IMG/VR virus record: IMGVR_UViG_3300044971_004534
Length of the DNA stretch: 64,000 nt
Strand: one strand, 5' to 3'
Source: a virus
Both the position numbers and the translations under genes were made by a program. The notes under the pieces were generated by a model. That model saw only the letters and a program-made list of their open reading frames with translations. It made no database searches and was not told where the DNA came from. Shown one piece after another: positions 29,819-46,153 of this stretch; the stretch's first letter is position 1, and each line of letters begins with the position of its first letter.

Positions 29819-30454
29819 ATGAATGATACAAATTTCGACACCTCTTTTACTCAGCTTGTTTCTTATCCTCGAACTGGTAGTCATTATGTAAGAATAGTTA
29901 TTGAGGATTGTACAGGGTCTCCATGTGCTCCAACTTCTTTTCTAGGAAATGAAGGCGTAAAGCCATGGGGTTTTCATCTTCATGATAGAATTGTTGGTAA
30001 AGGAGATGAGGGTGTGGTGTCTGGATTTGACAAAGTTATCTATTTGTATAGAAACCCGGTTGACACCATCTTTTCGCACATTAAATATCAAGGTACGGAA
30101 GATTGGATTTCAATAGCTAGCGAATATAAAATGCATTTGCTAAGATGGTTGCACAACCACTCTGACTGTAAAAGTGTTTTAGTTAAAAATTATGATGACA
30201 TATTAAGAAATCCAGTTCGTCACTTTAATGATATTCTTAATTATATTAATTTTGAAGTAGACAAGAATAGACTGTCAACGGCCATAGGAAGAACAACAAT
30301 TGGCAGAGTAAAGGCGTTAACGGACAAGATTGACAACAAAGTAGTCAGCGATAGTCATTTTGACGGAAAATACGTGATAGACAAATCTGTTTTTATTTCA
30401 AATCATGGTGAAGAAATACATAAAATGTTTGATGGAATTTATACTTATGAGTGA
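29819..30454 (+). CDS. sulfotransferase
   Basis: 5'-PSB-like SYPRTGSHYVR and KVIYLYRNPVDTIFSH (the RNP.D..S block of PAPS-dependent sulfotransferases). Confidence 0.7.
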   Translation: MNDTNFDTSFTQLVSYPRTGSHYVRIVIEDCTGSPCAPTSFLGNEGVKPWGFHLHDRIVGKGDEGVVSGFDKVIYLYRNPVDTIFSHIKYQGTEDWISIASEYKMHLLRWLHNHSDCKSVLVKNYDDILRNPVRHFNDILNYINFEVDKNRLSTAIGRTTIGRVKALTDKIDNKVVSDSHFDGKYVIDKSVFISNHGEEIHKMFDGIYTYE

Positions 30455-31388
30455 ATATAAAATAATAAATTTTATTGACGAAAATATCAGTCATGCTAAA
30501 ACCTGGAAACACGGCAGCATTATGTGCGGCTGTCGTGTTGGCGAAGAAAATATTGGCAAATATTACACTCCCCCAAAAAATATATGGGTAAAAAAGCAAA
30601 AAAGATTTCATAAAAATGAAATAGACAGCGGAATATCAGTTTTTACCGATCAGACATTTTGCACAGTAAAGAATTATGAATCAGATTTTAAAGTTGCTTT
30701 AATATTAGAGCCTCCTATAGAAGCAAGAGGCGCTTATGAAAAAATATTAGACTATGAAAACGACTTTGATTTTATTTTTACTTTTGAAAAACGATTGCTT
30801 GAGCGAAACAGTGAGAAGTATAAGTTTATGCCCGCAGACTTTGTGACACTACAAGACGAAGTACACAGTATAAAAGAGAAAAATAAGCATTTATCCATGG
30901 TGTATTCTGGAATGCGTGGTCATAATAGGGATCTTAGACATGAAGTGGCAAACGTTTTTAAAAATAATATAGACCTTTATGGAAGCGGTAGCCCAAAAGG
31001 ACATCTAGATTTAAAGTCAGATAGTCTTGTTGACTACAGATTTTCTATAGTTATAGAAAATTCCACTCCATTTGATTACTATTTTACAGAAAAAATACTA
31101 GATTGTTTTATTGTTGGGAATATTCCAATATATAATGGAACTAAATCAATTGATAAATTTTTTGATAAACGTGGTTTTTTTACATGGTCATCATTAGAAG
31201 AGCTTAAATCTATTTTAGATAGATTGTCGGAAGAAGAATATTTAAAAATGCTACCTTTTATAAAAACCAATTATGAGCTAGCTAAAAAATATGTAAGTGC
31301 AGATGACGTTATGACAGAATTAATATATTCATGTTTTGAAAATCCGACGACAAATACTATGGAAAAATATATTTACCAATGGAGATAG
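30447..31388 (+). CDS. GT10-like (alpha-1,3/4-fucosyltransferase family) glycosyltransferase
   Basis: YRFSIVIENSTPFDYYFTEKILDCFIVGNIPIYNG matches the GT10 ENS...Y.TEK...P.Y signature. ATG 30447 overlaps the upstream stop by 8 nt. Confidence 0.7.
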   Translation: MSEYKIINFIDENISHAKTWKHGSIMCGCRVGEENIGKYYTPPKNIWVKKQKRFHKNEIDSGISVFTDQTFCTVKNYESDFKVALILEPPIEARGAYEKILDYENDFDFIFTFEKRLLERNSEKYKFMPADFVTLQDEVHSIKEKNKHLSMVYSGMRGHNRDLRHEVANVFKNNIDLYGSGSPKGHLDLKSDSLVDYRFSIVIENSTPFDYYFTEKILDCFIVGNIPIYNGTKSIDKFFDKRGFFTWSSLEELKSILDRLSEEEYLKMLPFIKTNYELAKKYVSADDVMTELIYSCFENPTTNTMEKYIYQWR

Positions 31389-31389
31389 T

Positions 31390-32094
31390 ATGAAAATTTT
31401 ATATTATGATACGCAAAAGTATCCATTCAGAGATTTATTGCAAACAGTTTATAGCACAGATTTAACTAGCTTAGATACTGATGATGCTAAAAAGAACTTA
31501 ACTTTAGGCAATGACACTAAAACTTCTTTACACAAAGAGTTCTATAAAAAAATAGATGCTGGTTGGCCTGAGTTTATGGACTTGTACAAATCTTTCATAT
31601 CAAACGTCATACATCCTATGTTTGAAGATGACATTTTGATATATCAAAAAACTCCTGGAATTAGATTTTGCAGACCTGGGGCTAAAGCTGTATATAAATG
31701 GCATTCTGATGGAGATAAGGATCACAAGCATCCTCTAGGAGAAGTAAATATATTTTTGCCGCTCACTAAATGTTTTGATACTAATTCTGTATGGTTTGAG
31801 ACAATACCTGGAATGGGCGATTGGCGTCCTTTAGACATTGATTACGGTCAATTTTATATAGGATATTGGAATCAATGCAGACACGGAAATAAAGAGAATT
31901 CAACAGGCAAGACTAGGGTAAGTTTTGATTTCAGGGTAATTCCAGGATTTGCATACGATGAAAATTGTGATTTACAAAGCTGTACTACAAAGCAGCGATT
32001 TATCGTTGGAAGCTATTATGAAAAAGTTACTCGAGAAAAAACTCCATCCATGTACGATCCTGTAGAAAACGCAAAACTTGGAGCAGCATGTTAG
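31390..32094 (+). CDS. 2OG-Fe(II) oxygenase-like protein
   Basis: H-x-D (WHSDGD) ... H (CRHGN) ... R-x-S (TRVSFDFR) triad pattern. GGAG upstream of ATG 31390. Confidence 0.45.
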   Translation: MKILYYDTQKYPFRDLLQTVYSTDLTSLDTDDAKKNLTLGNDTKTSLHKEFYKKIDAGWPEFMDLYKSFISNVIHPMFEDDILIYQKTPGIRFCRPGAKAVYKWHSDGDKDHKHPLGEVNIFLPLTKCFDTNSVWFETIPGMGDWRPLDIDYGQFYIGYWNQCRHGNKENSTGKTRVSFDFRVIPGFAYDENCDLQSCTTKQRFIVGSYYEKVTREKTPSMYDPVENAKLGAAC

Positions 32095-32771
32095 ACCCAA
32101 ATGATTATGAATCTTGGCTGCTTCGTCATACCATGGATCAGTATGATCTTAAAGATCCATGGGAGGTAGTTGAAACTTTTGAAAACATCATTGCCAGCTA
32201 CGCTGGTAGTAGATATGCAGTATCTGTTGACAATTGTACAGACGCTATGTTTTTGTGTCTTAAATATCTTAATGCAAATGGTATAATAGAAATACCAAAA
32301 AGAACATATGTTTCTGTGCCATGCACAATTATAAATGCAGGATGTCAGGTTAAATTCAGTGACATAAGCTGGAGTGGTGCATATCAGCTTTTGCCATATC
32401 CAGTTTATGATTCAGCTACTAGGATGAAGAGGGGTATGTACGTAGAGGATTCATATTATTGTTTATCTTTTCATAGGAGAAAGCATATTCCTATAGGTAA
32501 GGGCGGAATGATATTGACTAATGACAAAAAAGCCTACGAATGGTTTAAAGTAGTTAGATACGAAGGCAGGCATATGGATCGTCTATACAAAGATGATCAT
32601 TTTGATGCAATTGGATGGAATATGTACATGACTCCAGAGCAAGCTGCAAAAGGTATATTTTTGTTCGATAAACACGTAAAGGATGACAATCAAGATCTTG
32701 AGACATCTGGAATACACAAAGATCTTTCTTTGTACCCGATTTTTACAAAATCTAATGACCGAGGAACTTAA
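32088..32771 (+). CDS. DegT/DnrJ/EryC1-like PLP-dependent sugar aminotransferase/dehydratase, short form
   Basis: VDNCTDAMFLCL and SFHRRKHIPIGKGGMILTND (the SF..K....GG...T.D Lys block). Only 227 aa compared with about 370 for typical members. Confidence 0.5.
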   Translation: MLDPNDYESWLLRHTMDQYDLKDPWEVVETFENIIASYAGSRYAVSVDNCTDAMFLCLKYLNANGIIEIPKRTYVSVPCTIINAGCQVKFSDISWSGAYQLLPYPVYDSATRMKRGMYVEDSYYCLSFHRRKHIPIGKGGMILTNDKKAYEWFKVVRYEGRHMDRLYKDDHFDAIGWNMYMTPEQAAKGIFLFDKHVKDDNQDLETSGIHKDLSLYPIFTKSNDRGT

Positions 32772-32776
32772 GTGCT

Positions 32777-33526
32777 ATGTTTTCAAAAAAAGATGTAATA
32801 AAAAAAATATTATTAACTGCTAGTGCAAGCAAAGAAGGTCACATACCTAGTGCTCTCTCTATATTAGATTTGCTTTACGTCATATATAGAGATTATGTAT
32901 CTGTAGAAAAAGGTAGATTTGTTTTATCAAAAGGTCATGCGTCTATTGGCCTTTATGCAATACTTGATTATTTTAATATGCTTGAAGAAGATATTGGTAA
33001 TTTTTGCAAATTTGATTCCAAGCTTGGAGGCCATCCTTCATGTAGGCTAAAAAACGTAGAGTGCTCTACTGGTTCTCTTGGTCATGGTTTTCCTTTTGCG
33101 CTTGGCTTAGCAATGAGTCAAAAAATACAGGGCTCAAATAAGAAAATATTTACTATCATAGGAGATGGTGAGGCTAACGAGGGCACTATATGGGAAACTG
33201 CTTTGCTTGCCAGTCATCACAAGGTCGGCAATCTTTGCTGCATATTAGATCATAATCATTCTACAGACAGAGCTTTAGATATTGGAGACATGATTAAAAA
33301 ATTTAAATCATTTGGATGGATTTGCAGCAAAGTACATGGTCACGATCTTGTTAAGATATCAAAAGTTCTTGCAAAGTCAGATGTAGAAAAGCCACATTTC
33401 GTGCTAGCTCATACGATAAAAGGCAAGGGTATAAAATGTATGGAAAGCAATCCAGAGTGGCACCATAAGTCTCCAACTGCCAGCGACTGTGAGAATATAA
33501 TCAAGGAATTATATGACAGCATCTAA
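32777..33526 (+). CDS. transketolase, N-terminal (ThDP pyrophosphate-binding) subunit
   Basis: GHIPSALSILDLL, GSLGHGFPFALGLA and IIGDGEANEGTIWE motifs. Confidence 0.85.
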   Translation: MFSKKDVIKKILLTASASKEGHIPSALSILDLLYVIYRDYVSVEKGRFVLSKGHASIGLYAILDYFNMLEEDIGNFCKFDSKLGGHPSCRLKNVECSTGSLGHGFPFALGLAMSQKIQGSNKKIFTIIGDGEANEGTIWETALLASHHKVGNLCCILDHNHSTDRALDIGDMIKKFKSFGWICSKVHGHDLVKISKVLAKSDVEKPHFVLAHTIKGKGIKCMESNPEWHHKSPTASDCENIIKELYDSI

Positions 33527-34358
33527 AAGCTTAATTATTAATACCAGAGAATATGGAATGTTCTCTAGTTTGTTTCAAATTATAGATAATCTAAAATTCT
33601 GTGAAATGAACAACATGAAACCAATATTGAATATTGGTGAAAAGTTTCTTTACCGCGATGGGCCGGAAAATCCATGGACTCATTATTTTAAGCCCATCAA
33701 TGACGGCAAGCCCGAGGGCGAAGTGTTTGAGGTTTCTCAGCTTACCACTACTGCTAACTTCTTTTTAGAAAACTATATAATGGCTCAGCCTTCGATTCAT
33801 GATTACCGATTAAAACTCTGGAACATGATAGCGGACAGAGACGATCTTCTTGCGCATCGTCAAGAAATAAAGTCGATGCTAGATAAGTACGTAAAACCAC
33901 TGCCAGTTATAACTGAAGAAGTGCAAAAATTTGCCAAAAAGAATTTTAAAGGTAACAGTGTATTGTCTGTTCACATAAGAAGTACAGATTATAAATTTGT
34001 CAACTTACCTTTGCTTATAGATAGAATTGATAAGATACAAAAGCAGAACAATTATAAGAAAATATTTGTTGCTTCTGATAGCTTAGAGGCAATTATGGGA
34101 ATTTATAATGCTTTTCCTAATGTGTGTTATTACGAAACAGGTCTAAGGTGTGAAAAGATTGATTCTCCAAAGCCTTTGTGTCATATTGTTTTTGGTCAAG
34201 ATAAAATAAAGCACGGGAGAGATGCTATCATAGAGTGCTTGCTTCTCTCTAAAGGAAAAGAGATAGTTTGTATCAACTCAAATGTTGCTGGTATGGCATG
34301 TTATTTAAATCCACAAATGAAAATACACTTAATGTGGAGGCAAATTCATGGGGGATAA
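33513..34358 (+). CDS. fucosyltransferase-like protein (GT11/GT23/O-FucT superfamily)
   Basis: LSVHIRSTDYKF (HxRxxD) and KIFVASDS blocks. Confidence 0.4.
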   Translation: MTASKSLIINTREYGMFSSLFQIIDNLKFCEMNNMKPILNIGEKFLYRDGPENPWTHYFKPINDGKPEGEVFEVSQLTTTANFFLENYIMAQPSIHDYRLKLWNMIADRDDLLAHRQEIKSMLDKYVKPLPVITEEVQKFAKKNFKGNSVLSVHIRSTDYKFVNLPLLIDRIDKIQKQNNYKKIFVASDSLEAIMGIYNAFPNVCYYETGLRCEKIDSPKPLCHIVFGQDKIKHGRDAIIECLLLSKGKEIVCINSNVAGMACYLNPQMKIHLMWRQIHGG

Positions 34359-34992
34359 AATGGAAGCAATTGAAATATCTGAAATTATTGATAATTTAAA
34401 ACAAAAAAGAGGATCGTTTCATTCATCTCCATGTCAGACTGATGAAGAGTTTTTAGTCATTGCTGACATAGTGCAAAAGTGTAATCATTTGCATGGAGAG
34501 TTTGCCGAAATAGGAGCCTACGAAGGTTTTACTAGTGAATTTATTTTGCGTTTAAAAAACAAAGACAAGGCCATATTTTTATGTGACACTTTCGAAGGAC
34601 TTGCAGATGTTGGCGATGAAGATAAGTCATTGTGCATTCCTAATGGACTTTTAAGGGTAGACTTTCAGCGATTTAATTCTACAAATGATTTTTGCAATAA
34701 CCAAAATGTTTTTATTATTAAAGGTTACTTCCCAGAATCAGCAACAGAAGAAATGAATCGGTCTAGATATGCTTTTGTTCACATAGATACAGACACATAT
34801 TTATCAACTTTAAAAAGCCTAGAATACTTCTATCCGAAAATGGTAAATGGAGGTATTATAATAGTTCATGATTACAGAAATCATACGGGAACATTGGGGG
34901 TAAAAAAAGCAGTAGATAGCTTTATGATCGATAAAGAAGATGCTCTTTCAACTAGAGGTGATACAACTCAAGGAATTATTACGAAGATATAA
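34348..34992 (+). CDS. TylF/macrocin-type O-methyltransferase
   Basis: FAEIGAYEGFTS and FVHIDTDTYLSTLKSLEYFYPKMVNGGIIIVHDY. Confidence 0.6.
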   Translation: MGDKMEAIEISEIIDNLKQKRGSFHSSPCQTDEEFLVIADIVQKCNHLHGEFAEIGAYEGFTSEFILRLKNKDKAIFLCDTFEGLADVGDEDKSLCIPNGLLRVDFQRFNSTNDFCNNQNVFIIKGYFPESATEEMNRSRYAFVHIDTDTYLSTLKSLEYFYPKMVNGGIIIVHDYRNHTGTLGVKKAVDSFMIDKEDALSTRGDTTQGIITKI

Positions 34993-34993
34993 T

Positions 34994-35872
34994 ATGAGAA
35001 AACAATTTGTAAAATCAATGAAAGAAATACTGTATGGAAATGATAAGTCCATACTTTTGCTTGGAGACATAGGCGTATTTGGTTTTAGAGAAGAGCTCAA
35101 AAATATACCAGACCGAGCATACAATATAGGCATACTTGAGCAGGCAACCGTTAGTTTAGCCGCTGGAATGGCTCGTGGAGGATTGATACCCTTCATACAC
35201 ACTATAGCTCCATTTATGGTTGAAAGAGCTTTAGAACAAATTAAGGTAGACTTTGGTTATCAAGAATTGAACGGCAATTTGATCAGTGTGGGTGCTTCTT
35301 ATGATTATGCTGGATTAGGATGCACTCATCATTGCCCAGGAGACATTCAAGCTCTTATGAGTATACCAAATATTAATATATTTGTGCCAGGGTCTTCTCA
35401 AGAGTTTGACATTTTATTGAAGCATTTTTACTTACAATCTATACCTAAATACTTTAGGTTAAGTGAGCATGAAAATCAGCAAACATATCACTGCAGTCCA
35501 GGAAGTGCTACCGTGTTGAAAAATGGAACATTAGCGACAATAGTAGTTTATGGTCCGATGTGTGACAGCGTTTTAAAGGCATGCGAAAATATTGATGTGT
35601 GTATATTGTACTATAATTCCATTTTGCCTTTTGATGGCAGTACACTTGTAAATAACTTTAATGAAACAATCATAGTGTGCGAGCCTTTTTATTGTGGTTC
35701 AACCAATTACCTTATAAATAATGCTCTAAAAAATAAAAAATATAGCATATCTAACATAGGAGTTCCGCGCCATTTCCTTCATAATTATGGCGATAAAAAG
35801 CAGCACGATCAACATTTAATGCTTGATGTAGAAGGTATAAGAAAGAGAGTAGAAGAATGCTTGAAATTATAA
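34994..35872 (+). CDS. transketolase, C-terminal (pyrimidine-binding) subunit
   Basis: YNIGILEQATVSLAAGMARGGLIPFIHTIAPFMVERALEQI. ATG 34994 follows the upstream TAA. Confidence 0.8.
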   Translation: MRKQFVKSMKEILYGNDKSILLLGDIGVFGFREELKNIPDRAYNIGILEQATVSLAAGMARGGLIPFIHTIAPFMVERALEQIKVDFGYQELNGNLISVGASYDYAGLGCTHHCPGDIQALMSIPNINIFVPGSSQEFDILLKHFYLQSIPKYFRLSEHENQQTYHCSPGSATVLKNGTLATIVVYGPMCDSVLKACENIDVCILYYNSILPFDGSTLVNNFNETIIVCEPFYCGSTNYLINNALKNKKYSISNIGVPRHFLHNYGDKKQHDQHLMLDVEGIRKRVEECLKL

Positions 35873-36894
35873 ATGAAGAATGCTCTAAAATAGTAGAGAA
35901 AATAGATTTTTCAAAGTTAAGAGGAAAAAGAATACTAATAACTGGGGCTTCAGGTATTGTCGGTGTGTATATGCTTTCGTGCCTTCAGGAGGTAAAAAAG
36001 AAATACAACATAGATATTTTTTGCTGGGTTAATAATGATATTGAATCAGTTTTCCAGCCTTTGTTCAAAGACTGTGCAATCATAAAGGGAGACATTTGTG
36101 ATGACAAATTGCTAGATGCTGTTTTTTCAGATTTATGTGAAAACCATTTAAGTGGATTTGATTTGATTATACACGCTGCTGGTTATGCTCAGCCTAACAA
36201 ATTTTTAGAAAACAAGGTCAAAACTATACAGCTAAATACAACTTCAACAGTGAAGTTATTTAACATGCTTAACAAGGGTGGATCTTTTGTTTTTATGAGC
36301 ACAAGTGAGCTGTACAGTGGAATAGATCATGACAACATATCTGAAGCTGACATAGGAACTTCCTCTACAAACCATCCCAGATCTTGCTATATAGAGGGGA
36401 AGAGATGCGGAGAAGCTATATGTCATGCATTTTGCAATGAAGATGCAAAAGTAAAAATTATTAGATTAAGTTTAGCGTATGGTCCTGGAACAAAGAAAAA
36501 TGATCAAAGAGTTTTGAATTCTCTTTTTCAAAAAGCATTTGAAAATGGTAAAATTAATTTGCTTGATAGTGGATCTTCAATGAGAACATATGGATACATA
36601 TCTGATATTATAGAAATGATATGGAATATATCTCTCTTTGGTAAAGAGATTGTGTATAACGTTGCAGGCGAATCAAGAACGACAATCTTAGATTTGGCAA
36701 AACAAATTGCTGGTCTTACAAATGTAGAGTTAACAGCTCCGCAAGATGATGCATCTCAGTTGGCTGGTGTGCCAAAAAATGTTAATTTAAGTTTGCAAAG
36801 ATACTGCAGTGAATTTAGTAAGCCAAATTTTGTATCTTTAGAGGATGGACTCAAAAAGACCATGGAGTGGCAGAGAGGAATTTATGTCAAATAA
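35857..36894 (+). CDS. NAD-dependent sugar epimerase/dehydratase (extended SDR)
   Basis: ILITGASGIVGVY glycine-rich loop and YIEGK catalytic YxxxK. Confidence 0.8.
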   Translation: MLEIINEECSKIVEKIDFSKLRGKRILITGASGIVGVYMLSCLQEVKKKYNIDIFCWVNNDIESVFQPLFKDCAIIKGDICDDKLLDAVFSDLCENHLSGFDLIIHAAGYAQPNKFLENKVKTIQLNTTSTVKLFNMLNKGGSFVFMSTSELYSGIDHDNISEADIGTSSTNHPRSCYIEGKRCGEAICHAFCNEDAKVKIIRLSLAYGPGTKKNDQRVLNSLFQKAFENGKINLLDSGSSMRTYGYISDIIEMIWNISLFGKEIVYNVAGESRTTILDLAKQIAGLTNVELTAPQDDASQLAGVPKNVNLSLQRYCSEFSKPNFVSLEDGLKKTMEWQRGIYVK

Positions 36895-37801
36895 GATAAC
36901 CGCAGAGGACATATCAAACATACTTGGGTTTGAGATCTCAGAACTCACAGCCAAAATGGTTGAGAATTTTGATTTACAATATGAAAATCTCACAGAAAAA
37001 GAAATGGATGACTACCTCATTAGGGTTACGGATGTTCTTACTGGAGATATAGTAAAAAGCGGATCTCATCGTATAGATGACTGGGAAAAAGGTTGGGGAG
37101 AAAATCTTGAGCTATACAGGAAGACTCGTGATATAAATGCACTTATACCAAAGTATCACTGTAAGAATAGGTTTGTTAGATGGATGGGCAATATAGTTAA
37201 TCCTATTACTCCGGCATTTGACTACAAGATACACATATGCTTTATAGACGCTATATTGCATCATTATCTAAAAGATGGCTACGGGAGTGTATATGAGTTT
37301 GGCTGCGGTCCTGGCTATCACCTTTTGAGGCTTCGGGAATCTCGTCCAGATTTGAATCTTACAGGCCTAGACTGGGCTACTTCCTCTCAGGAATTGATTG
37401 CCGAGATAAGCAAGTCTCTGTCAAAACCAATAGGGGCTCACAGGCTTGATTTCTTTAAGCCAGACTATAGTTTTGACATAGATCCAAATAGTATTGCGTA
37501 TACAGTTGCTGCTCTTGAGCAAACAGGAAGTAACTATGTTAAGTTCGTTGATTACTTACTTGACAAAAAGCCAAGCCTGTGCATCAATATGGAGCCTATT
37601 GCAGAATTGCTAGATGATTCTAGTCTGATAGACAATCTTTCTATAAAATACTTCAGAAAAAGAAATTATCTGCATGAGTATTTGATACATCTTGAATGGC
37701 TTGAAAGCATTGGCAAGATAAAGATTATAGATAAGAGAAGAATTTGGAGCGGAAGCTACTTTATAGAGGGTCACTCTCTCGTAGTGTGGAAGCCTCTTTA
37801 A
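36884..37801 (+). CDS. class I SAM-dependent methyltransferase
   Basis: VYEFGCGPGYHLLRL motif I and LTGLDWA motif II. GAGAGGAA upstream of ATG 36884. Confidence 0.6.
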   Translation: MSNKITAEDISNILGFEISELTAKMVENFDLQYENLTEKEMDDYLIRVTDVLTGDIVKSGSHRIDDWEKGWGENLELYRKTRDINALIPKYHCKNRFVRWMGNIVNPITPAFDYKIHICFIDAILHHYLKDGYGSVYEFGCGPGYHLLRLRESRPDLNLTGLDWATSSQELIAEISKSLSKPIGAHRLDFFKPDYSFDIDPNSIAYTVAALEQTGSNYVKFVDYLLDKKPSLCINMEPIAELLDDSSLIDNLSIKYFRKRNYLHEYLIHLEWLESIGKIKIIDKRRIWSGSYFIEGHSLVVWKPL

Positions 37802-38705: not shown

Positions 38706-39338
38706 TTAAGGCTTACCTTGTATTTCGCTTTGATATTTACCGTTTTGAGAACCTTGTGTTATGAATCCAGGCTCATACCAGTAGACTGTTGTATTTAGTT
38801 TAATAAATCTGTAATTTAAATCCCAATCTATGGGTAAATATGCTCTCGTTTCTTTCATGTCTTCATATATCTTTCTTGCAGCTAATGGGTGTATCATCAT
38901 GCTGTCTGTGCATTTAGATTTTAGTCTGTTATTGTTCTTTACAAATCCTTGTCCATCAACCTTTAAGCCACAGCATGTTCCAAAAAAGCAAAACTCCCAG
39001 TCTTCAGGTATTGAATTAAAATTGTGGACAAAATTATCAAGTTCTGATGGATTGAATATTACGTCATCTTCTAGAATCATTGCAGGCTCTCCGCTATCTG
39101 CTATCTTTTTAAAAGTTCTAAATTGCTTATGTATTAGAGACCTGTTGCCATTATTGATTTCTACTTTAGGAAAATCTTCTGGTAGTATATTTTTTTCTTC
39201 CATCGTAGAAAAATGTATTTCACTATGTTCAAACATAACTATTTCAAGATCTTCAACAAAATTACATTGCATAATTAATTCAATCACATTGTTCAATCTC
39301 TCTTTAAAACCCTTGCGGTGCATCAAATATACCTTCAT
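38706..39338 (-). CDS. GT25-like glycosyltransferase (divergent)
   Basis: MILEDDVIF block and overall length and pattern like the other two GT25 genes. Sits upstream of a GT10-like gene, as at 45539/44757. Confidence 0.5.
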   Translation of the reverse strand: MKVYLMHRKGFKERLNNVIELIMQCNFVEDLEIVMFEHSEIHFSTMEEKNILPEDFPKVEINNGNRSLIHKQFRTFKKIADSGEPAMILEDDVIFNPSELDNFVHNFNSIPEDWEFCFFGTCCGLKVDGQGFVKNNNRLKSKCTDSMMIHPLAARKIYEDMKETRAYLPIDWDLNYRFIKLNTTVYWYEPGFITQGSQNGKYQSEIQGKP

Positions 39339-39459
39339 ATGCTTGCCTCCTTAAGTGCATAATTTATAATACAATTTTTTATCATATAACATTAGTTAAT
39401 AATTGATAATTTTATTATTTATCGATAAATATGACGAAATAGTTGTACAAGAGAGTTTT

Positions 39460-40293
39460 ATGATCCTATCTATATTGGTTCCAGGCAAAAATGATAATTT
39501 TAGATATAATGGTTCAAAAACCATAGAGTTTAACATACATCAAACATTAGATAATATAGAAAAATCTAAGATAAAAGACGTAGAGCTTGTGTTGTGCGAT
39601 TGGGGCAGTGAAGTAAAAATTATTGATAAAATATCAAACAAAAGAAAAAATTTTAAATGCGTATATGTACCTCCAGATATAGCAAAAAAATATAATGGAC
39701 AAGCTAATTACTCTATAGTGCATCCCATCAATACAGCTTTTAGAAATAGCTCTGGAAAATATGTATGTTTTTGGGATTCTGATTGTTTTGTTTTACTAGA
39801 TAGTTTTTTAAAGTTATATGAATTTGTTCAGCAAATGGAATCTACCCAAGATATGCATTTTTATTGGGGTTCTAGATTTAATATCCCGTATGAACAGTAT
39901 AACGAAATGCAGTCGCATAGTGAATTAGTTGCAAAAATAAAAAGTGGAATACAGGTTTATCATGACAAGATAGCTGGCGGTGGTAAATTTATGGGGGCTT
40001 CAATATCTTTACTTATGAATAGGCATCTCTGGGAAGACAGTACGGGTTGGTATGAAAATTTGCCTTATTGGGGCTGGCAAGACATTGAATTTCATCATCG
40101 TTTGATGAAAAGATATAGCTATGGTGGAGATCTAGAGGATTGGGGTATGCAATTTTTCCATCTTTTACAGCCAGCAAAAAATGATGGAAACAAAAATAAA
40201 CACTTAATGAATCCATCAATAAACGCAACTTTTTTTAGAGCTAATCCGCCAAGTTGGGGTTTAGCAAATGAGAAATTGGAGATAATAGAATGA
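39460..40293 (+). CDS. GT2-like glycosyltransferase
   Basis: LSILVPGKND, LVLCDWGS and WDSDCF blocks. GAGAG upstream of ATG 39460. Confidence 0.5.
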   Translation: MILSILVPGKNDNFRYNGSKTIEFNIHQTLDNIEKSKIKDVELVLCDWGSEVKIIDKISNKRKNFKCVYVPPDIAKKYNGQANYSIVHPINTAFRNSSGKYVCFWDSDCFVLLDSFLKLYEFVQQMESTQDMHFYWGSRFNIPYEQYNEMQSHSELVAKIKSGIQVYHDKIAGGGKFMGASISLLMNRHLWEDSTGWYENLPYWGWQDIEFHHRLMKRYSYGGDLEDWGMQFFHLLQPAKNDGNKNKHLMNPSINATFFRANPPSWGLANEKLEIIE

Positions 40294-41195
40294 ATACTTT
40301 AATTACAGGCGGCAGAGGTCTTTTGGGCAGTGCATTTAATTTTGGACATAAGCCTTCTAAGGAAGAACTGAACTGTTTGCAATATGATAATTTAAGAAGC
40401 TATATAAAAAATAATAGCATAGACTCTATTGTGCACGCAGCAGCAAGAGTAGGTGGGGTAAAAGCAAATACGGATTTCGTTTACGATTTTTTTGCTGATA
40501 ATATTTCTATGAGCGTTAATGTAATGAACGCGTGTAGAGAATTTGAAATAAAGAGGGCAATTTTTATTGTTTCCACATGCGCATTTCCAGTGAGTGCCCC
40601 TTTACCCCTTGCTGAATCGTCTTTGCATTGTGGAGAGCCACATCATACTAATTTCGGATATGCATATGCAAAGAGGATGCTTGAGGTTGGTTCAAGAGCG
40701 CTCAGACAACAGTATGGAATAAACAGTTCATGTGTAATACCATGCAATTTATATGGTGAGCATGACAGTTATAATTTACAGAGTGGGCACGTTATTCCTA
40801 GTCTTGTGCATAAATGTTGGATAGCCAAAAATACCAACTCAACACTTGAAATATGGGGAAGTGGTAAGGCGGAAAGAGAATTTATATATGTAAACGATTT
40901 TGCTAGCATTATAGACAAGCTTATAAATGAAAAACCATATATCCCAGAAACAATGATCATATCTCCAGGAATTACTTATACTATTGAGGAAATAGTTCAT
41001 CATATAGTAAAAATATTTAAATTTGAAGGTAAAGTTTTCTTTGATAAGAGTAAGCCAGAGGGAATAATGAAGAAAAATTCTAATAACTCTATTTTTAGAA
41101 AATATTTTGAAGACTTCAAGTTTACAGATTTAGATACAGGTCTTTCTAATTCTATAGAATATTTTGTAAAAAACTATGATACATTGAGAAAGTAA
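40290..41195 (+). CDS. fcl: GDP-L-fucose synthase (GDP-4-keto-6-deoxymannose 3,5-epimerase/4-reductase)
   Basis: LITGGRGLLGSA, HAAARVGGVKAN, STCAFP and NFGYAYAKRM (YxxxK), in the order typical of Fcl/GMER. Confidence 0.8.
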   Translation: MNTLITGGRGLLGSAFNFGHKPSKEELNCLQYDNLRSYIKNNSIDSIVHAAARVGGVKANTDFVYDFFADNISMSVNVMNACREFEIKRAIFIVSTCAFPVSAPLPLAESSLHCGEPHHTNFGYAYAKRMLEVGSRALRQQYGINSSCVIPCNLYGEHDSYNLQSGHVIPSLVHKCWIAKNTNSTLEIWGSGKAEREFIYVNDFASIIDKLINEKPYIPETMIISPGITYTIEEIVHHIVKIFKFEGKVFFDKSKPEGIMKKNSNNSIFRKYFEDFKFTDLDTGLSNSIEYFVKNYDTLRK

Positions 41196-41201
41196 AATTT
41201 A

Positions 41202-42143
41202 ATGAAAACTCTTGTAACGGGTGGTGCTGGATTTATTGGTTCTAACTTAGTTGATGCATTAATCAAAAATGGCCATGAAGTCACAGTTATAGATAATGAA
41301 TCATCTGATGCTCATGATCATTTTTATTGGAATTCAGAAGCAAAAAATTACAAGTATGATATAAACGACTACGAATCAGTTCTGAGACTATACGAAGGTG
41401 TCGATACTGTTTTTCACTTGGCAGCAGAAGCTCGAATTCAGCCATGCATAGTCGATCCATTGAAGGCAGTAAAGGCAAATATGCTTGGCACAGCGACGGT
41501 GCTTCAGTGCTCTCGTGTATGTGGAGTAAGGCGTGTTATATACTCTTCTACCTCATCAGCATATGGTCTCAGTAACACCCCACCTCTTGTTGAAACGATG
41601 CCAAATGACTGTCTTAACCCCTATTCAGTCACCAAAACAGGTGGAGAAGAGTTGTGTAAAATGTACTCTAAACTTTACGGTTTAGAAACAATCATTTTTA
41701 GATATTTTAATGTGTATGGTGAGCGTCAGCCATTGCGTGGGCAGTATGCTCCGGTCATAGGGATATTTCTTCGTCAAAGATCTGCTGGTCAACCAATGAC
41801 GATTGTAGGGGATGGGGAGCAACGGCGAGATTTTACGCATGTCAGTGACGTAGTAGAGGCAAATATTCATGCTCTATCTTTTGTTGCTCCAGAATACAAT
41901 GTCATCGAAAAAGGCTCTTGTAAAACTTATACTGGATGGGAATGGGGTCAAGTATATAACATAGGTACTGGGAAAAATCATTCTATTAATGAAATAGCTT
42001 CACTTATGGGTGGACCTATATCTCACATTCCGCCGCGCCTTGGTGAATCCAGGATAACTTTAGCAGATTCAGGTAAGGCCCTAGCGCAATTGGGATGGAA
42101 GCCAAAAGTACGCCTTGAAGATTGGATACTCAAAAATAGATAA
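41202..42143 (+). CDS. NAD-dependent nucleotide-sugar 4-epimerase/dehydratase (extended SDR)
   Basis: LVTGGAGFIGSNLVDAL and YSVTKTGGE. Confidence 0.8.
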   Translation: MKTLVTGGAGFIGSNLVDALIKNGHEVTVIDNESSDAHDHFYWNSEAKNYKYDINDYESVLRLYEGVDTVFHLAAEARIQPCIVDPLKAVKANMLGTATVLQCSRVCGVRRVIYSSTSSAYGLSNTPPLVETMPNDCLNPYSVTKTGGEELCKMYSKLYGLETIIFRYFNVYGERQPLRGQYAPVIGIFLRQRSAGQPMTIVGDGEQRRDFTHVSDVVEANIHALSFVAPEYNVIEKGSCKTYTGWEWGQVYNIGTGKNHSINEIASLMGGPISHIPPRLGESRITLADSGKALAQLGWKPKVRLEDWILKNR

Positions 42144-42152
42144 AGAGAAAAA

Positions 42153-42872
42153 ATGACACATATACCCACACAGCCTCCAGAATGGTATGAGCATCCGCAG
42201 ATCAAATACATGAAAAATATTGATCGAAATCTTTCCAGTATAGATCAATTTTATGCAGTAAAATCTTTTGACTGGTCTGGAGAAAGAGTGCAAGTAGATT
42301 TGTTTTGCGAATTATTAAAAACTATAAAAAGTGACGTACCAAGTATGATTGAACTTGGAAGTGCTGGTGTTGGAGGCTCTTTTTATTCTGTTTTATTTGA
42401 AAAATGGTTTGATAAAAAGTGTATGATTATTAATGTAGATCCAAGAAAAGAAATGTTAGAAGAAGTAAAAACTTATTGGAAAGATTTGCATTTAACGCAA
42501 GCAAAATTTTATCATGGATATGTGGGTGTTCCAAAGCACTACCAAGCTTTGCCAGACTTTAAGACTGATCAAACGCCATTTTTGAAAATAAATAATATGT
42601 TTGAAGAAAATAAAATAACCAAGTTAGACATACTTCATGCCGACATTCAAGGATCAGAGATCTCGGTATGCGAAGAGATGAAGTCTGATGGACTACTTGA
42701 TAGGGTTAGGTATTTTTTTATAAGCACTCATTCAGGAGAGGGCATAAACACATACTATCCTTGTATGGATATTTTTTCTTCAAGCTTAAATTGTAAATTT
42801 CACTTTTCTGATCCATTGAATGGTGGATGGGGTGATGGCTTAATAGTTGTTGAAAATTTGTCATGGGAGTAA
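42153..42872 (+). CDS. FkbM-family methyltransferase-like protein
   Basis: IELGSAGVGGS and ILHADIQGSEISV blocks. Confidence 0.55.
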   Translation: MTHIPTQPPEWYEHPQIKYMKNIDRNLSSIDQFYAVKSFDWSGERVQVDLFCELLKTIKSDVPSMIELGSAGVGGSFYSVLFEKWFDKKCMIINVDPRKEMLEEVKTYWKDLHLTQAKFYHGYVGVPKHYQALPDFKTDQTPFLKINNMFEENKITKLDILHADIQGSEISVCEEMKSDGLLDRVRYFFISTHSGEGINTYYPCMDIFSSSLNCKFHFSDPLNGGWGDGLIVVENLSWE

Positions 42873-42875
42873 AGA

Positions 42876-43484
42876 ATGAAAAAAGAAACTTTAGATTTAT
42901 GGTATAAAAATAATGACGTTCATGATTTTCTACATGTTCATGATTTGTCTCGTGAAAGTTTGATAGTCGATATCGGCAGCTACAAGGGTAGTTGGCTTCA
43001 CCATATGAATAAACTCTATGGCTGTAAGTGCATAGGAGTAGAACCTGTCACTGATTATTTTAAAGAATCTTTAAAATTAGAATTTAACAACAAATGTGAA
43101 ATTCATGATTTTGGTTTAACAGTAGATGCTTCTGATAAGGTAAGAATGTCTTTTGACGAAGATGCATCTTCTATGGTAAAAGAGATTGATTTGAAGAAAA
43201 GCGTTGTTGTTAACACTGTAAATGCAAAAGAGTTTTTTCAAAGAATTCAAGAGCCAATAGACGTTTTACAAATCAATGCAGAAGGGCTAGAGTATTCTCT
43301 TATCCCATACATGCATGAAAATAATCTATTTGCTCCCGTAAAATTTGTGCAAATTCAGTTTCATGACATAAGTCCCGATTGTCAAAGATCCATGTATGCT
43401 TGTATAGATTTGGTAGAAAAAAGTGGATTTAATACGAAGTTTGAATATCCATTTGTTTGGTATGGTGCAGAAAGGAAGAAGTGA
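42876..43484 (+). CDS. FkbM-family methyltransferase-like protein
   Basis: VDIGSYKGSW and VLQINAEGLEYSLI blocks. Confidence 0.55.
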   Translation: MKKETLDLWYKNNDVHDFLHVHDLSRESLIVDIGSYKGSWLHHMNKLYGCKCIGVEPVTDYFKESLKLEFNNKCEIHDFGLTVDASDKVRMSFDEDASSMVKEIDLKKSVVVNTVNAKEFFQRIQEPIDVLQINAEGLEYSLIPYMHENNLFAPVKFVQIQFHDISPDCQRSMYACIDLVEKSGFNTKFEYPFVWYGAERKK

Positions 43485-43984
43485 TGCAATCTTATTCTCA
43501 ATCTGGTCAAGACGGTTATGCTTTAGAAAAATCTGGCGGTAAAACAAACGGTTTTTATATAGAAATAGGAGCTCATCATCCAATTGAAAATAGTAATTCT
43601 TTGATGCTTGAGAGACTTGGATGGAATGGTATAAGCTTTGAAATATCAGATATTTCAGCTTCTTGGGAAGCTCATAGAAAAAATAAAATTATTATATGTG
43701 ATGCAACAGATTATGATTTTGTGAGCTGTTTTTTATCTAATAATGTTCCACAAGAAATAGATTATTTATCTTTAGATATTGACGGAGCAACTTTAGATTG
43801 TTTAAAAAAACTACCTTTACACTCTTATGTTTTTAAAGCAATAACTATAGAGCACGACGAATATCATAGAGGTAGTGATGTCAAAAACGCAATGAGAGAA
43901 ATACTTAACTCACACGGATATGTTTTAGATAGGCCTGATGTTGCAAATAATGGATTTGTGTATGAAGACTGGTGGATTCATTAA
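43484..43984 (+). CDS. FkbM-family methyltransferase-like protein
   Basis: SQSGQDGY, YIEIGAHHP and YLSLDIDGATLDCL blocks. TGATG overlap with the upstream gene. Confidence 0.55.
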   Translation: MQSYSQSGQDGYALEKSGGKTNGFYIEIGAHHPIENSNSLMLERLGWNGISFEISDISASWEAHRKNKIIICDATDYDFVSCFLSNNVPQEIDYLSLDIDGATLDCLKKLPLHSYVFKAITIEHDEYHRGSDVKNAMREILNSHGYVLDRPDVANNGFVYEDWWIH

Positions 43985-44760
43985 ACTCTAATCCATCTTG
44001 ATGGACATAAGTCTTTAGTGCATTCATCATGGTTGGGATGTACATCTCTGTGTGGCCATCTGTTGCCAAACCAGTTTTGTGGATAAAATACCTTTTCAGC
44101 TCTTCCTAGCCATGATGCCCACCAGCTAAAACTACTATTTGCCATTATGACATTTTTGCATTTTGACATTAGATACATAGAGGGTAGTGGGGGAAGATCG
44201 ACCATGGTGTAATCTCTTCCGCTAAAAACGTTTCTACACCATCCTAGATCATCAGAAAATACCAAGACTCTACCTATTTCTCCCATTTTTGACAAGCACA
44301 TATCGTAATGGTCTAGTCCGTATTGAGGGTATACGTCTGGATATTTTAAATAGTCTGTTCTTCTTATATGTATTGCGGTATTTAAATTACCATCCAAAAA
44401 ACATTTATATTTACCATCATAAAGCTTTTTCGTAGCCTCTACAGTATTTGTGTCAAATGAAAAGCATCTTCTGACTTCATCTTCTGCAGATAAAAAGTAT
44501 TTTTCTGATTGAAAATATCCGTCTAAATGCGTATTGTCTGCAAGACTTTCAATGCCACTATCATAATTAAATCTTCTCTCCACAAAAGACTTAGAACATC
44601 TTTTTTGTATTTTAGAAACGCCCTTGAGCTTTAACCCATGTAAGTGGCTATCATCTCCTACATAATATGGCTGTACTCCAAGTCTTTTTGCAACTGCTAT
44701 TGCAGTTGCAATTTGGAACATATTGTTACCCGTTCTCCCGTAAAGTTCTACTGTTATCAT
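43981..44760 (-). CDS. GT11 alpha-1,2-fucosyltransferase
   Basis: ELYGRTGNNMFQIATAIAVA (G..GNQMFQ motif) and AIHIRRTDYL (HxRRxD motif). Confidence 0.8.
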   Translation of the reverse strand: MITVELYGRTGNNMFQIATAIAVAKRLGVQPYYVGDDSHLHGLKLKGVSKIQKRCSKSFVERRFNYDSGIESLADNTHLDGYFQSEKYFLSAEDEVRRCFSFDTNTVEATKKLYDGKYKCFLDGNLNTAIHIRRTDYLKYPDVYPQYGLDHYDMCLSKMGEIGRVLVFSDDLGWCRNVFSGRDYTMVDLPPLPSMYLMSKCKNVIMANSSFSWWASWLGRAEKVFYPQNWFGNRWPHRDVHPNHDECTKDLCPSRWIRV

Positions 44761-45542
44761 CTGAACATTTTCTCCACTATTTGATGTATGCCATCTGGTG
44801 ATTTGAAGTTTAAATTTTGAGCAATTTGTATGTTTTTTATAACAGCATGCTTTCTGCTCTCATATTCTTGCTCAAAATTAAAGCCGTTTTTTATGTGCAT
44901 AAAGTCTTTTAGCCATATTATGCCTGCTGGTTCAAAAATATTATATACTTTTTTTGTACCCCAATATATTGGTATTGTGCCAGTTAAAAAACAGTCTAAA
45001 ATCTTTTCTGTAAAGTATGTATCTATGCAGCTATTCTCCATGGCAACTGAAAATCTATAATCTCTAAGTCCATCTATTTTTGCATTTAACGAGTTTGGTC
45101 TACCGTGACCATAAAGATCTACTGATGAACTAAGCTCATTGGCAATATCTTGTCTGTATTGGTGTCCAGAGCACATCACCTTAGAAGAAGCAATCATACT
45201 TATGTTTTTTGTTTTTTCATATATGCGTTGATCATCTTTTTCTATCCATGCAGGCACGCATGGATGTATTTGTATTAAATGATTTTTAATATTCAATTTA
45301 TCGCAATGTGATATTACTGCATCATATGGTACTTTTCTGTGCTCTACAGCATTGTATATGTCTGGCTCTATTGCTCTTGGCTCAAGTAACCAAAGAGCCT
45401 TTTTTGCTTGCTGGTTAAATTTATTAATTCTATTTACAGATACTATTAAATTGGCATCATCGGGGCTAGAATTTATCCAGTTATGATGTTCTAGGGGCTG
45501 TAGAAAATAGTCCCAATCTATGAATACTTTAACTTTGCTCAT
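44757..45542 (-). CDS. GT10-like glycosyltransferase
   Basis: YRFSVAMENSCIDTYFTEKILDCFLTGTIPIYWG. Paralogue of 30447..31388. Confidence 0.7.
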   Translation of the reverse strand: MSKVKVFIDWDYFLQPLEHHNWINSSPDDANLIVSVNRINKFNQQAKKALWLLEPRAIEPDIYNAVEHRKVPYDAVISHCDKLNIKNHLIQIHPCVPAWIEKDDQRIYEKTKNISMIASSKVMCSGHQYRQDIANELSSSVDLYGHGRPNSLNAKIDGLRDYRFSVAMENSCIDTYFTEKILDCFLTGTIPIYWGTKKVYNIFEPAGIIWLKDFMHIKNGFNFEQEYESRKHAVIKNIQIAQNLNFKSPDGIHQIVEKMFR

Positions 45543-46153
45543 TTTAAGAAATCGTACTTTCTATGTCCACCTTCAATGTCAGACCAGCCTTCTCTCTGCC
45601 ATGCTAAGTGGTGGCAAAATCCATAGCACGGAATTCTTTTTTGTATTTTATGAAGATGTACATCTGCTGGCAAGTTAAATATGTTACTATCAGAAAACTG
45701 CTCCATGAGCGTGTTGACTGCATTTTGATTTATAGCGTAACAATGAGTTGTAAAGGTCTTTCTTAATTTATGTACATGCTCATTTATTTTTTTAGGTGGC
45801 TCATTATGAGAGCCCCCGAAAAACAGCAAGTTCCAATCTTCTGGTACATTTTTGTAGTATTTTGAAAAAAGTTCTTTGAATCTTGGATGAAATTCTATGT
45901 CGTCTTCAAGAACTAAAACTTTTTGCAAACTTCTATCATGAAACATTTTTTCATATATTTTTTTGTGCGACAGACAGCATCCAGCAGCCCCTGGCTTAAG
46001 TCCTTTTGTGTCTGCGACCATAGAACCATCAACAGCTTCTAAAAACTCTACATTCATTCCGTGTTTGCGAAATATTTGCTCACACTCTGATTTTCTATCA
46101 GTCCTGCGTGCTAAATTTATGCAATATATTTTATTAAAATCTGAAATTTCCAT
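45539..46153 (-). CDS. glycosyltransferase family 25
   Basis: YCINLARRTDRK...LEAVDGS and VLEDDIEF. Long collinear identity with 25709..26326. Confidence 0.75.
   Translation of the reverse strand: MEISDFNKIYCINLARRTDRKSECEQIFRKHGMNVEFLEAVDGSMVADTKGLKPGAAGCCLSHKKIYEKMFHDRSLQKVLVLEDDIEFHPRFKELFSKYYKNVPEDWNLLFFGGSHNEPPKKINEHVHKLRKTFTTHCYAINQNAVNTLMEQFSDSNIFNLPADVHLHKIQKRIPCYGFCHHLAWQREGWSDIEGGHRKYDFLK

Follow-up and report, generated by a model that had tools for sequence, protein, structure and literature searches.

A conserved fucose and sulfotransferase gene module within a predicted glycan-building island of a huge freshwater bacteriophage

The glycan genes of phages are usually labelled 'lipopolysaccharide (LPS) genes', and their product is not known. 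The question of what such genes make, and on what it is placed, is raised by the IMG/VR virus record IMGVR_UViG_3300044971_004534, a stretch of 64,000 nucleotides (hereafter the window) in which genes for the synthesis and transfer of fucose stand together with a sulfotransferase gene and several methyltransferase-like genes. An original prediction described positions 29819–46153 as a region of fucose-centred chemistry with sulfation and heavy methylation. All the genes it named are present where it placed them, and the genes of this region are short, densely packed, frequently overlapping and mostly on the plus strand. The extent has to be revised, since the glycan island is about twice the size given, running from 17797 to 49073 (~32 kb) with a separate gene for Gmd at 55408. 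The enzyme families of the island and the conserved linkage of its central genes have been demonstrated. From these, it is probable that the island builds a fucosylated, methylated and sulfated glycan in the cytoplasm, with a shared 'sulfo-fucose' module as its core.

Both enzymes of GDP-L-fucose synthesis are encoded, as had been claimed. The GDP-mannose 4,6-dehydratase Gmd (55408..56403, plus strand) matches TIGR01472 over its full length with 417.7 bits, passing the equivalog cutoff of 415 bits, and matches PF16363 with 392 bits. The GDP-L-fucose synthase of the Fcl/GMER type (40290..41195, plus strand) has NF047922 as its best NCBIfam family (195 bits; next family, 47 bits). Its top 18 solved-structure matches are all GDP-fucose synthases, aligned end to end (human FX, 3.4e-62; Escherichia coli, 5e-42). 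The Ser-Tyr-Lys triad and the Cys/His epimerisation pair are retained, the segments VSTCAFP, YAYAK and SGHVIPS aligning with LSTCIFP, YSYAK and DGHVLPG. The two genes lie 14.2 kb apart, in agreement with the spacing predicted. In related viral loci Gmd is found 0–3 kb from Fcl, and the gap is therefore taken as a derived rearrangement in this lineage.

Five fucosyltransferase-type proteins had been proposed, three of them in family GT10 of the glycosyltransferases (GTs). These are GT10a (30405..31388, called start 30447, plus strand), GT10b (37802..38701, minus strand) and GT10c (44757..45542, minus strand), which match PF00852 with 29.6, 39.9 and 48.8 bits (gathering score 23.9 bits, the same as for PF01531). 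The starts 30447, 36884 and 43484 of the original prediction agree with independent gene calls on public contigs of identical sequence; a mechanical list of open reading frames (ORFs) gives 30405, 36845 and 43457. The three proteins are divergent paralogues with 30–33% mutual identity. The C-terminal nucleotide-binding motif ENS....Y.TEK, which aligns to the Helicobacter pylori FucT, had been reported for all three; it is present in GT10a (IENSTPFDYYFTEK, reading IENS....YYFTEK) and GT10c (MENSCIDTYFTEK), whereas GT10b reads ENS....N.SEK, in the variant ENS....NISEK (LENSSISGNISEK). The best solved relatives of GT10c are alpha1,3-fucosyltransferases of H. pylori (2nzw, 1e-9), plant and human, and its homologues occur in T4-like cyanophages and in one phage of 735 kb.

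The fourth protein is a GT11 alpha-1,2-fucosyltransferase type (43981..44760, minus strand). Its match to PF01531 (59.5 bits) is above gathering, it matches phrog_2644 with 3.5e-46, and the classical motifs I, II and IV are readable as GRTGNNMFQ, HIRRTDY and NSSFSWWASWL, which bears out its assignment; a sequence match to any solved GT11 was not obtained. The fifth, at 33513..34358 (plus strand), carries the motif HIRSTDY and had been called O-FucT/GT23-like. Taken alone, it reaches no Pfam family above gathering (NodZ, 12.7 bits vs 28.3). The profile of its family of 16 members matches NodZ with 8.7e-4, followed by FUT8 and POFUT1/2; ten of the 16 members reach Pfam NodZ at E up to 1, the best with 1.8e-6, and H154 and R156 of the HxR GDP-fucose-binding motif are invariant in the family. 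The AlphaFold2 (AF2) model, with a pLDDT of 89.7, was matched by Foldseek to FUT8 and NodZ (E 2e-10), then to AtFUT1 and POFUT1, and the top 50 matches are all fucosyltransferases. By profile and predicted fold, the protein would be a NodZ/FUT8-type enzyme, with strict GT23 membership falling short of the Pfam threshold, and the earlier call is upheld in that form. In profile, solved-structure and fold searches the GT10, GT11 and GT23-like proteins all fall within fucosyl families, so that the placement elsewhere by which the prediction could have been refuted was not seen.

The gene directly before GT10a, whose start overlaps its end, encodes a protein of 211 amino acids (29819..30454, plus strand) predicted as a sulfotransferase dependent on 3'-phosphoadenosine 5'-phosphosulfate (PAPS). 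The assignment is sustained by a match to PF00685 of 27.4 bits, above the gathering score of 22, and by an AF2 model (pLDDT 92.9, pTM 0.90) for which the 50 best PDB matches comprise nothing but PAPS sulfotransferases (E ~1e-7, TM 0.5–0.65). Three segments are invariant in 25 metagenomic relatives: LVSYPRTGSH, the 5'-phosphosulfate loop; HLHDR, with the candidate catalytic histidine; and YLYRNPVDT..S, the 3'-phosphate motif. The PAPS-binding residues, on which the call had been made to depend, are kept in alignment with the solved SULT7A1, where YPRTGSHY faces YPKSGTHW in the 5'-phosphosulfate-binding motif and YRNPVDTIFS faces VRNPKDTAVS in the 3'-phosphate-binding motif. The family comprises 369 representatives at E ≤1e-10 among 1.84 billion. 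It has no NCBIfam or PHROG counterpart, and tblastn with this protein and with the 2-oxoglutarate (2OG)-like protein described below found no homologue in 50,697 deposited phage records.

When IMG/VR was scanned with the alignment of the sulfotransferase family, 18 viral contigs of up to 289 kb were recovered; in 15 of these loci GT10a either adjoins the sulfotransferase gene or is no more than one or two genes away. Eight genes recur together: those for GT11, the sulfotransferase, GT10a, a 29238-like protein, the 2OG-like protein, a mini-DegT, Fcl and Gmd. All eight occur within ~8 kb, in shuffled order, in at least seven groups of viral contigs (L007-9, L010, L011-13, L014-16, L017-19, L020 and L021), and Fcl is kept in every module lineage. 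The sulfotransferases of six groups (L010, L011-13, L014-16, L017-19, L020 and L021) have 27–47% identity to that of the window. In sister lineages a full-length DegT lies just upstream of Gmd. In addition, mini-DegT and Fcl are separated at locus L021 by genes for a B12-binding radical-SAM enzyme and a carbamoyltransferase of the NodU/CmcH type (L021:10517-14111), predicted to add further glycan decorations. Distant relatives of the sulfotransferase (25–34% identity) are also found in bacterial metagenome-assembled genomes (MAGs), within polysaccharide clusters that hold GT10, GT11, Fcl/Gmd, FkbM and 28589-like genes. The synteny of the viral module, the additional genes of the sister lineages and the bacterial clusters together make a glycan acceptor for the sulfotransferase much likelier than an incidental location. 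As the gene arrangement is conserved both in further viral lineages and in glycan clusters of bacteria, fucose and sulfate can be connected with more confidence. The recurrence of the module in large phages suggests that phages may be able to build sulfated, methylated fucose glycans. No report of a sulfotransferase within a conserved fucose module of bacteriophages was found in the literature searched.

A possible contribution to the supply of PAPS is seen on a sister contig. IMGVR_UViG_3300022935_000005 (280,913 bp), which bears the L014 module, encodes a complete APS (adenosine 5'-phosphosulfate) kinase (PF01583, 222 bits; L074:2989-3594) ~210 kb from the module, among small phage-like genes. 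Directly after the first sulfotransferase, the same contig has another, which is of the carbohydrate type (PF03567, L014:8650-9324). A contribution to PAPS supply can therefore be expected from one, at least, of these phages. A regular-expression search of the window and 42 loci for motifs of APS kinase, ATP sulfurylase, CysD and CysH was empty, and the negative is a weak one.

Six methyltransferase-like genes had been listed, and half of them are firm. These are the TylF-type sugar O-methyltransferase (34348..34992, plus strand; PF05711 58 bits, PF13578 41 bits) and two of three FkbM-type genes on the plus strand at 42153..43984. The three, at 42153, 42876 and 43457/43484, match PF05050 with 21.6, 27.4 and 27.6 bits; 42876 and 43457 are above gathering and 42153 is just below. 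The remaining two calls are also weak. The probable S-adenosylmethionine (SAM) methyltransferase at 36845..37801 (called start 36884, plus strand) has the motif YEFGCGPGY, a match to Methyltransf_25 below gathering (E 0.0089) and matches to PDB methyltransferases at E ~0.3 only. The middle domain of the protein at 18597 matches Methyltransf_23, CMAS and Methyltransf_11 at residues 294–387, all below gathering. Both appear consistent with class-I SAM enzymes. With three firm and three soft calls, heavy methylation is plausible.

The evidence points to a huge freshwater bacteriophage, with a genome of at least 400 kb, as the source of the window. Identical proteins were found on public contigs of 281, 301 and 406 kb. 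Contig Ga0453138_0000025 (161 kb) of JGI metagenome 3300042945 is 100% identical to the window over 20.6 kb, and sequence of 99–100% identity is present in more than 30 sample blocks. Among these is run ERR2814753, a virus-particle metagenome assigned to the Lake Soyang freshwater virome (PMC7553992). A strain on ENA ERZ28594056 LIAN20-1 scaffold_1 (L003, 301 kb) has 99.1% identity over 20.5 kb; its homology ends at window position 40286, exactly at the start of Fcl, where a different gene of 226 amino acids is found, and the island thus appears strain-variable at this junction. Megablast of the island against the deposited phage records gave zero matches, and the genome accordingly has no close deposited relative. 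As to the host, the only hints come from Flavobacterium phages, in which mini-DegT has a homologue, and from a GC content of ~35%.

In the pathway proposed from these gene assignments, Gmd and Fcl would turn host GDP-mannose into GDP-L-fucose, and further activated sugars would be provided by a GalE-type epimerase and other short-chain dehydrogenase/reductase (SDR), pyridoxal phosphate (PLP) and thiamine diphosphate (ThDP) enzymes. Some 15 glycosyltransferases, all predicted soluble, would assemble the glycan stepwise in the cytoplasm, with fucose added by the three GT10, the one GT11 and the one NodZ/FUT8-fold enzyme. The TylF- and FkbM-type enzymes would O-methylate it, and the PAPS-dependent sulfotransferase, genetically coupled to GT10a, would add sulfate from PAPS that is presumably of host origin. 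The last step, and the least certain, would be attachment directly to a phage protein, probably at the virion surface, as in chloroviruses, mimiviruses and mycobacteriophages. Membrane-like segments were absent from ORFs of at least 120 amino acids in the window, apart from three SDR/Rossmann beta-strands, and no family of initiating transferase, flippase, polymerase, ligase or ABC exporter appeared among the scanned ORFs, which cover 64 kb of the genome of at least 400 kb. These absences indicate soluble, cytoplasmic enzymes and favour direct glycosylation of a phage protein. In keeping with virus-encoded virion glycosylation, the window holds soluble glycosyltransferases, its own Gmd, Fcl and GalE-like enzymes and a protein that joins glycosyltransferase, methyltransferase and glycosyltransferase domains; the features of a Wzx/Wzy- or ABC-dependent O-antigen or capsule locus were not found within it. 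The interpretation as a fucose-rich, O-methylated and possibly sulfated saccharide is thus borne out as far as gene content and conserved context go. The fullest version, in which the eight-gene module would let huge freshwater phages cover their virions in a fucose-rich glycan that is both sulfated and O-methylated (fucoidan- or sulfo-Lewis-like), some lineages making PAPS through a phage APS kinase, is offered tentatively.

Several observations weigh against this interpretation, and they bear first on its chemistry. The glycan itself is read from gene content alone. Fcl scores under the NF047922 equivalog cutoff (195 vs 500 bits) and, with GGRGLLGSA kept, lacks ~15–20 residues after GxxGxxG relative to the human and E. 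coli enzymes; the shortening looks like a lineage feature rather than damage, because other phage homologues have equal length. The GT10, GT11 and GT23-like enzymes might use other GDP-6-deoxyhexoses derived from the Gmd product (perosamine, rhamnose, 6-deoxytalose or colitose derivatives), so that the glycan would be rich in 6-deoxyhexoses rather than in fucose. The Gmd product is a branch point, a DegT-type PLP enzyme belongs to the core module and is joined in sister lineages by a full-length DegT directly upstream of Gmd, and the fucosyltransferase-type proteins are far from characterised enzymes (30–40% identity, or similarity at the level of fold only). Such a product nevertheless seems improbable, given that no module lineage has lost Fcl, that its catalytic residues are intact in an end-to-end alignment with solved GDP-fucose synthases, and that the characterised relatives of the transferases by profile, sequence or fold are fucosyltransferases without exception. 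The sulfotransferase, for its part, has as its nearest solved relatives SULT1C3, SULT7A1, Teg12 and StaL, which act on small molecules and not on carbohydrates. It is a short protein without the C-terminal GxxGxxK region of cytosolic SULTs and without NCBIfam or PHROG matches, and family scans found no PAPS-synthesis gene in the window. Its substrate might accordingly lie outside the glycan, whether a protein tyrosine, a small molecule or some other metabolite, or it might bind PAPS/PAP without transferase activity, its position in the island being incidental. We give this little credence, in view of the overlap with GT10a, the persistence of a GT10a orthologue adjoining or near it in 15 of 18 viral loci despite reordering, and the occurrence of distant bacterial relatives within GT10, GT11, Fcl or GT2 clusters. 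Invariance of both cofactor-binding motifs and of the candidate catalytic histidine in 25 family members, and the addition of a PF03567 carbohydrate-type sulfotransferase and an APS kinase in a sister lineage, argue in the same direction.

The target of the glycan is open to more doubt than its chemistry. The choice of a virion acceptor depends on negatives from the window, which covers 64 kb out of at least 400 kb of genome and in which no capsid, terminase, tail or other virion gene was identified, and soluble glycosyltransferases could equally use host intermediates linked to undecaprenyl diphosphate (Und-PP). The same chemistry might thus belong to an auxiliary cell-wall cluster that acts on host lipid-linked LPS, O-antigen or capsule intermediates during infection, with export through host initiating transferases and flippases and with a changed surface as its purpose, for example superinfection exclusion or grazer evasion. 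Homologous gene sets in T4-like cyanophages are normally read in this way (PMC9602691, PMC12801897), and the closest deposited-phage relatives of GT10c and Fcl are found in those phages; GT25 is an LPS-type family, and the bacterial relatives of the sulfotransferase sit in cellular polysaccharide clusters. Against it stand the absence from the window of an initiating phosphoglycosyl transferase, flippase, polymerase, ligase, ABC exporter and membrane proteins, and the heavy investment that a glycan built by ~15 glycosyltransferases on a host carrier would be during a lytic cycle; a role at the host surface is, moreover, only a hypothesis even for the cyanophages. We regard a host-envelope target, the main rival reading, as possible but rather unlikely. 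Were the window instead an O-antigen or capsule locus from a bacterial chromosome or plasmid, wrongly labelled as viral, this would explain why all enzyme families of the island are common in bacterial polysaccharide loci, why megablast matched no deposited phage and why virion genes were not seen in 64 kb. Such an origin is very improbable. The window contains four scattered tRNAs and phage-typical genes, namely a DUF2201 and AAA pair (phrog_1314, phrog_1297), a sigma factor (phrog_351) and an SNF2 helicase with a PHROG match; neither cellular core or ribosomal genes nor Wzx and Wzy were found in it. The sequence is present in a virus-particle metagenome and in nearly identical copies across the sample blocks, and its relatives sit on IMG/VR viral contigs of 130–290 kb. 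A reading of the island as DNA-hypermodification machinery was dropped; its GT10, GT11, GT23 and GT25 enzymes, its sulfotransferase and its sugar O-methyltransferases belong to glycan chemistry, and the family searches turned up no DNA glycosyltransferases.

Comparable gene sets exist in other viruses. The 'LPS' clusters of the T4-like cyanophages S-SCSM1, S-SCSM2R, P-SSM2, S-SSM7 and S-CAM7 share with the window Gmd, Fcl, GT10, GT11, NodZ/O-FucT-type and other glycosyltransferases, and epimerases. At the level of annotation, S-SCSM1 has Gmd, Fcl, O-FucT, alpha1,2-FucT and NodZ (PMC9602691), and S-SCSM2R has GT10 and GT11 (PMC12801897). Homologues also occur in 'huge phage' records of 595–735 kb. 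Identity to the cyanophage proteins is 35–41% for GT10c and ~30% for Fcl. The present island differs in its larger size (~15 glycosyltransferases), in a phage genome of at least 400 kb and in its sulfotransferase and 2OG-like protein, for which the deposited phage records hold no homologues; the eight-gene module is not described in the papers on S-SCSM1 and S-SCSM2R (PMC9602691, PMC12801897). Among giant viruses, glycosylation clusters with a predicted sulfotransferase beside SAT/APS kinase have been reported in Moumouvirus australiensis (ma457-ma468) and Cotonvirus (PMC10117803). By analogy, the island resembles those of giant viruses in having its own nucleotide-sugar synthesis and apparently soluble cytoplasmic glycosyltransferases and methyltransferases, which there decorate virion proteins. 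Giant viruses, however, are Nucleocytoviricota that infect eukaryotes, whereas the present virus is a bacteriophage, and an APS kinase is found on a sister phage contig and not in the window. Sulfation in Moumouvirus and Cotonvirus is also a prediction, and their sulfotransferases are likened to this one by gene context and not by sequence. The original view that a virus-encoded glycan sulfotransferase would be unusual therefore holds, but such an enzyme is not unique, being predicted in these two viruses and present, in the same family, in 18 IMG/VR contigs.

In chloroviruses GMD/GMER are virus-encoded, and the capsid glycans contain fucose and are methylated. Among cellular systems, the Lewis-antigen O-chain of H. 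pylori is made with GalE, a GT25 beta1,4-GalT, the GT10 enzymes FutA/FutB, the GT11 enzyme FutC, Gmd and Fcl. The GalE-type, GT25, GT10, GT11, Gmd and Fcl members of this pathway all have counterparts in the window. The H. pylori pathway differs in being built on a lipid carrier and exported, by machinery that is absent from the window, and it is not known to have a sulfotransferase or O-methyltransferases, unlike the island. The Nod factor of Rhizobium sp. NGR234 (NodZ, NoeI, NoeE, NoeL/NolK, NolO/NodU) is the only well-characterised bacterial system known to combine fucosylation with 2-O-methylation and sulfation of the fucose. Its enzymes comprise Gmd/Fcl, a fucosyltransferase of family GT23, a methyltransferase and a PAPS sulfotransferase, and the acceptor is a chitin oligomer. 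The NodZ fold is matched by the protein at 33513, and a carbamoyltransferase is present in sister locus L021, so that a functional analogy, and only that, may be drawn; a chitin-synthase-type NodC is absent here. Kinship of the sulfotransferase with rhizobial NoeE/NodH was rejected at the sensitivity used, in which tblastn against 72,556 plasmids gave only one match, in Octadecabacter, at E 1e-3.

Phage fucose gene sets, in cyanophages, and predicted sulfotransferases of glycan clusters, in giant viruses, were already known separately, and neither element is unprecedented. What appears to be new, at the level of genes, is a predicted sulfotransferase built into a conserved fucose module of phages. 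This portable module, which links the synthesis of GDP-fucose with fucosyltransferases of two families and with a sulfotransferase, recurs in several lineages of very large phages, one of which also has an APS kinase. Experimental evidence of virion glycosylation in phages is known only for a few mycobacteriophages. Sulfated glycans have so far been a matter of cells and of predictions for a few giant viruses; if the proposed product is real, a bacteriophage would for the first time be credited with making one, and virions would gain a new kind of surface chemistry that bears on adhesion to hosts, mucus or particles and on how they are shielded from recognition. The core consists of only eight small soluble proteins that are easy to express, which makes it a defined and testable system, and a confirmed product would provide new fucosyl- and sulfotransferases for glyco-engineering.

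The remaining enzymes of the island qualify the description of its chemistry as fucose-centred. The fucose enzymes are confirmed, and the description is incomplete, since GalE-like, GT25, mini-DegT and split-transketolase genes are also present; together with the other SDR, the 2OG-like protein and the GT2 enzymes, they make a fucose-only glycan unlikely. In the core module, the 2OG-Fe(II) oxygenase-like protein (31336..32094, called start 31390, plus strand) has a weak match of 31 bits, far under cutoff, to TIGR04324, the 'sporadic carbohydrate cluster 2OG-Fe(II) oxygenase', and 38–83% identity across the viral loci. The mini DegT/DnrJ-type PLP enzyme of 227 amino acids (32088..32771, plus strand) matches PF01041 in two stretches with 72.5 bits; it keeps the N-terminal part and the PLP lysine of SFHxxK, and its C-terminal domain is absent. 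Proteins of ~220–234 amino acids occur at the other loci (L010:12661-13365, L014:5769-6434, L021:9852-10520), with 47–87% identity across the viral loci and 47–60% in distant lineages, where this is the best-conserved protein of the module. Homologues are also present in Flavobacterium phage immuto, huge phage LR756511 and cyanophage S-SCSM2R. The conserved core-module protein at 29238..29816 (plus strand), of no known function, is syntenic in the seven viral contig groups with 43–77% identity. A guess by eye that it is a SAM methyltransferase was dropped after it gave no Pfam, PHROG or PDB match, including a search of PDB with a seven-sequence profile. It is preceded by four further conserved ORFs of no known function on the plus strand (26336, 27104, 27864 and 28589; 26336..29245), which are syntenic in L007-L009 and for which a Pfam scan gave nothing above threshold; 28589-like genes adjoin the sulfotransferase in three bacterial MAG loci (L025, L028, L031). 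The stretch 26336–29816 thus holds five consecutive conserved ORFs of 190–255 amino acids without family assignment, which may be new glycan-modifying enzymes.

Further sugar synthesis is represented by an SDR (35857..36894, plus strand; PF01370 114 bits) resembling nucleotide-sugar dehydratases and UDP-glucuronate decarboxylase (PDB 8v4g, 1.6e-27; UXS1, 1e-25) and by a GalE-type UDP-hexose 4-epimerase SDR (41202..42143, plus strand; TIGR01179 152 bits), matched by the UDP-glucose 4-epimerase 4zrm with 3e-49. A transketolase is split into an N-terminal, ThDP-binding subunit (32777..33526, plus strand; PF00456 105 bits) and a subunit with the pyrimidine-binding and C-terminal parts (34940..35872, plus strand; PF02779 56.8 bits). 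The two halves are separated by the GT23-like (33513) and TylF (34348) genes and followed by the dehydratase/UXS-like SDR. This layout suggests that a two-carbon-branched or chain-extended sugar may be made besides fucose.

The other glycosyltransferases include five GT2 genes, one of them fused to methyltransferase- and GT4-like domains, and one GT2-like paralogue. The left edge of the island is formed by a GT2 gene (17797..18600, plus strand; PF00535 71 bits), followed by the fusion, a protein of 786 amino acids (18597..20957, plus strand) in which GT2 (PF00535 112 bits, residues 4–135) precedes the class-I methyltransferase-like domain and a weak Glyco_trans_1_4 match at residues 625–723. 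This arrangement resembles that of the multidomain capsid-glycan enzyme A064R of chlorovirus PBCV-1. Next on the plus strand (20954..22791) are a GT2 (20954–21895; PF00535 27.4 bits) and its paralogue (21799–22791; 26% identity over 316 amino acids, E 1e-24), and a further GT2 lies at 39403..40293 (plus strand; PF10111 36 bits, PF00535 33 bits). GT25 is represented by two firm genes with 54% identity, at 25709..26326 (minus strand; PF01755 65 bits) and 45539..46153 (minus strand; PF01755 77 bits), and by a weak one at 38706..39338 (minus strand; PF01755 E 0.004), which has local similarity to both. The right edge (46159..49073, minus strand) holds the GT2 at 46159 (PF10111 29.7 bits), a protein of 270 amino acids at 47209 without assignment and the one weak GT4-like gene at 48018 (Glyco_trans_1_4 E 0.005).

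Outside the island, accessory phage genes are found at 46–11072 and 59873–60424. They encode a DUF2201 metallopeptidase/VWA protein, a MoxR-like AAA ATPase, a sigma-70-like factor, a dCMP deaminase, a SET-domain protein, an M43/reprolysin-like peptidase, a TilS-like PP-loop ATPase and a SpoU methylase. An IMPDH/GMP-reductase-like gene lies at 9900–11072 (plus strand), and a short PurA-like adenylosuccinate synthetase of 336 amino acids is encoded at 49783–50793 (minus strand). Its identification as PurZ, which would have implied a 2-aminoadenine genome, was rejected; PurA models score 290 bits vs 102 for PurZ (cutoff 300), and the aspartate of GDEGKG is kept. A tRNA-Ser of 92 nt (50978–51069, minus strand) was detected by ARAGORN beside a tRNA-Asn and has the anticodon ACT, with A at position 34, which is unusual for Ser. 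The GC content is ~0.46 at 60001–64000 and ~0.35 in the remaining window. ORFs overlap on both strands at 60742–61440, and the scanned ORFs at 61234 and 62601 gave no family match.

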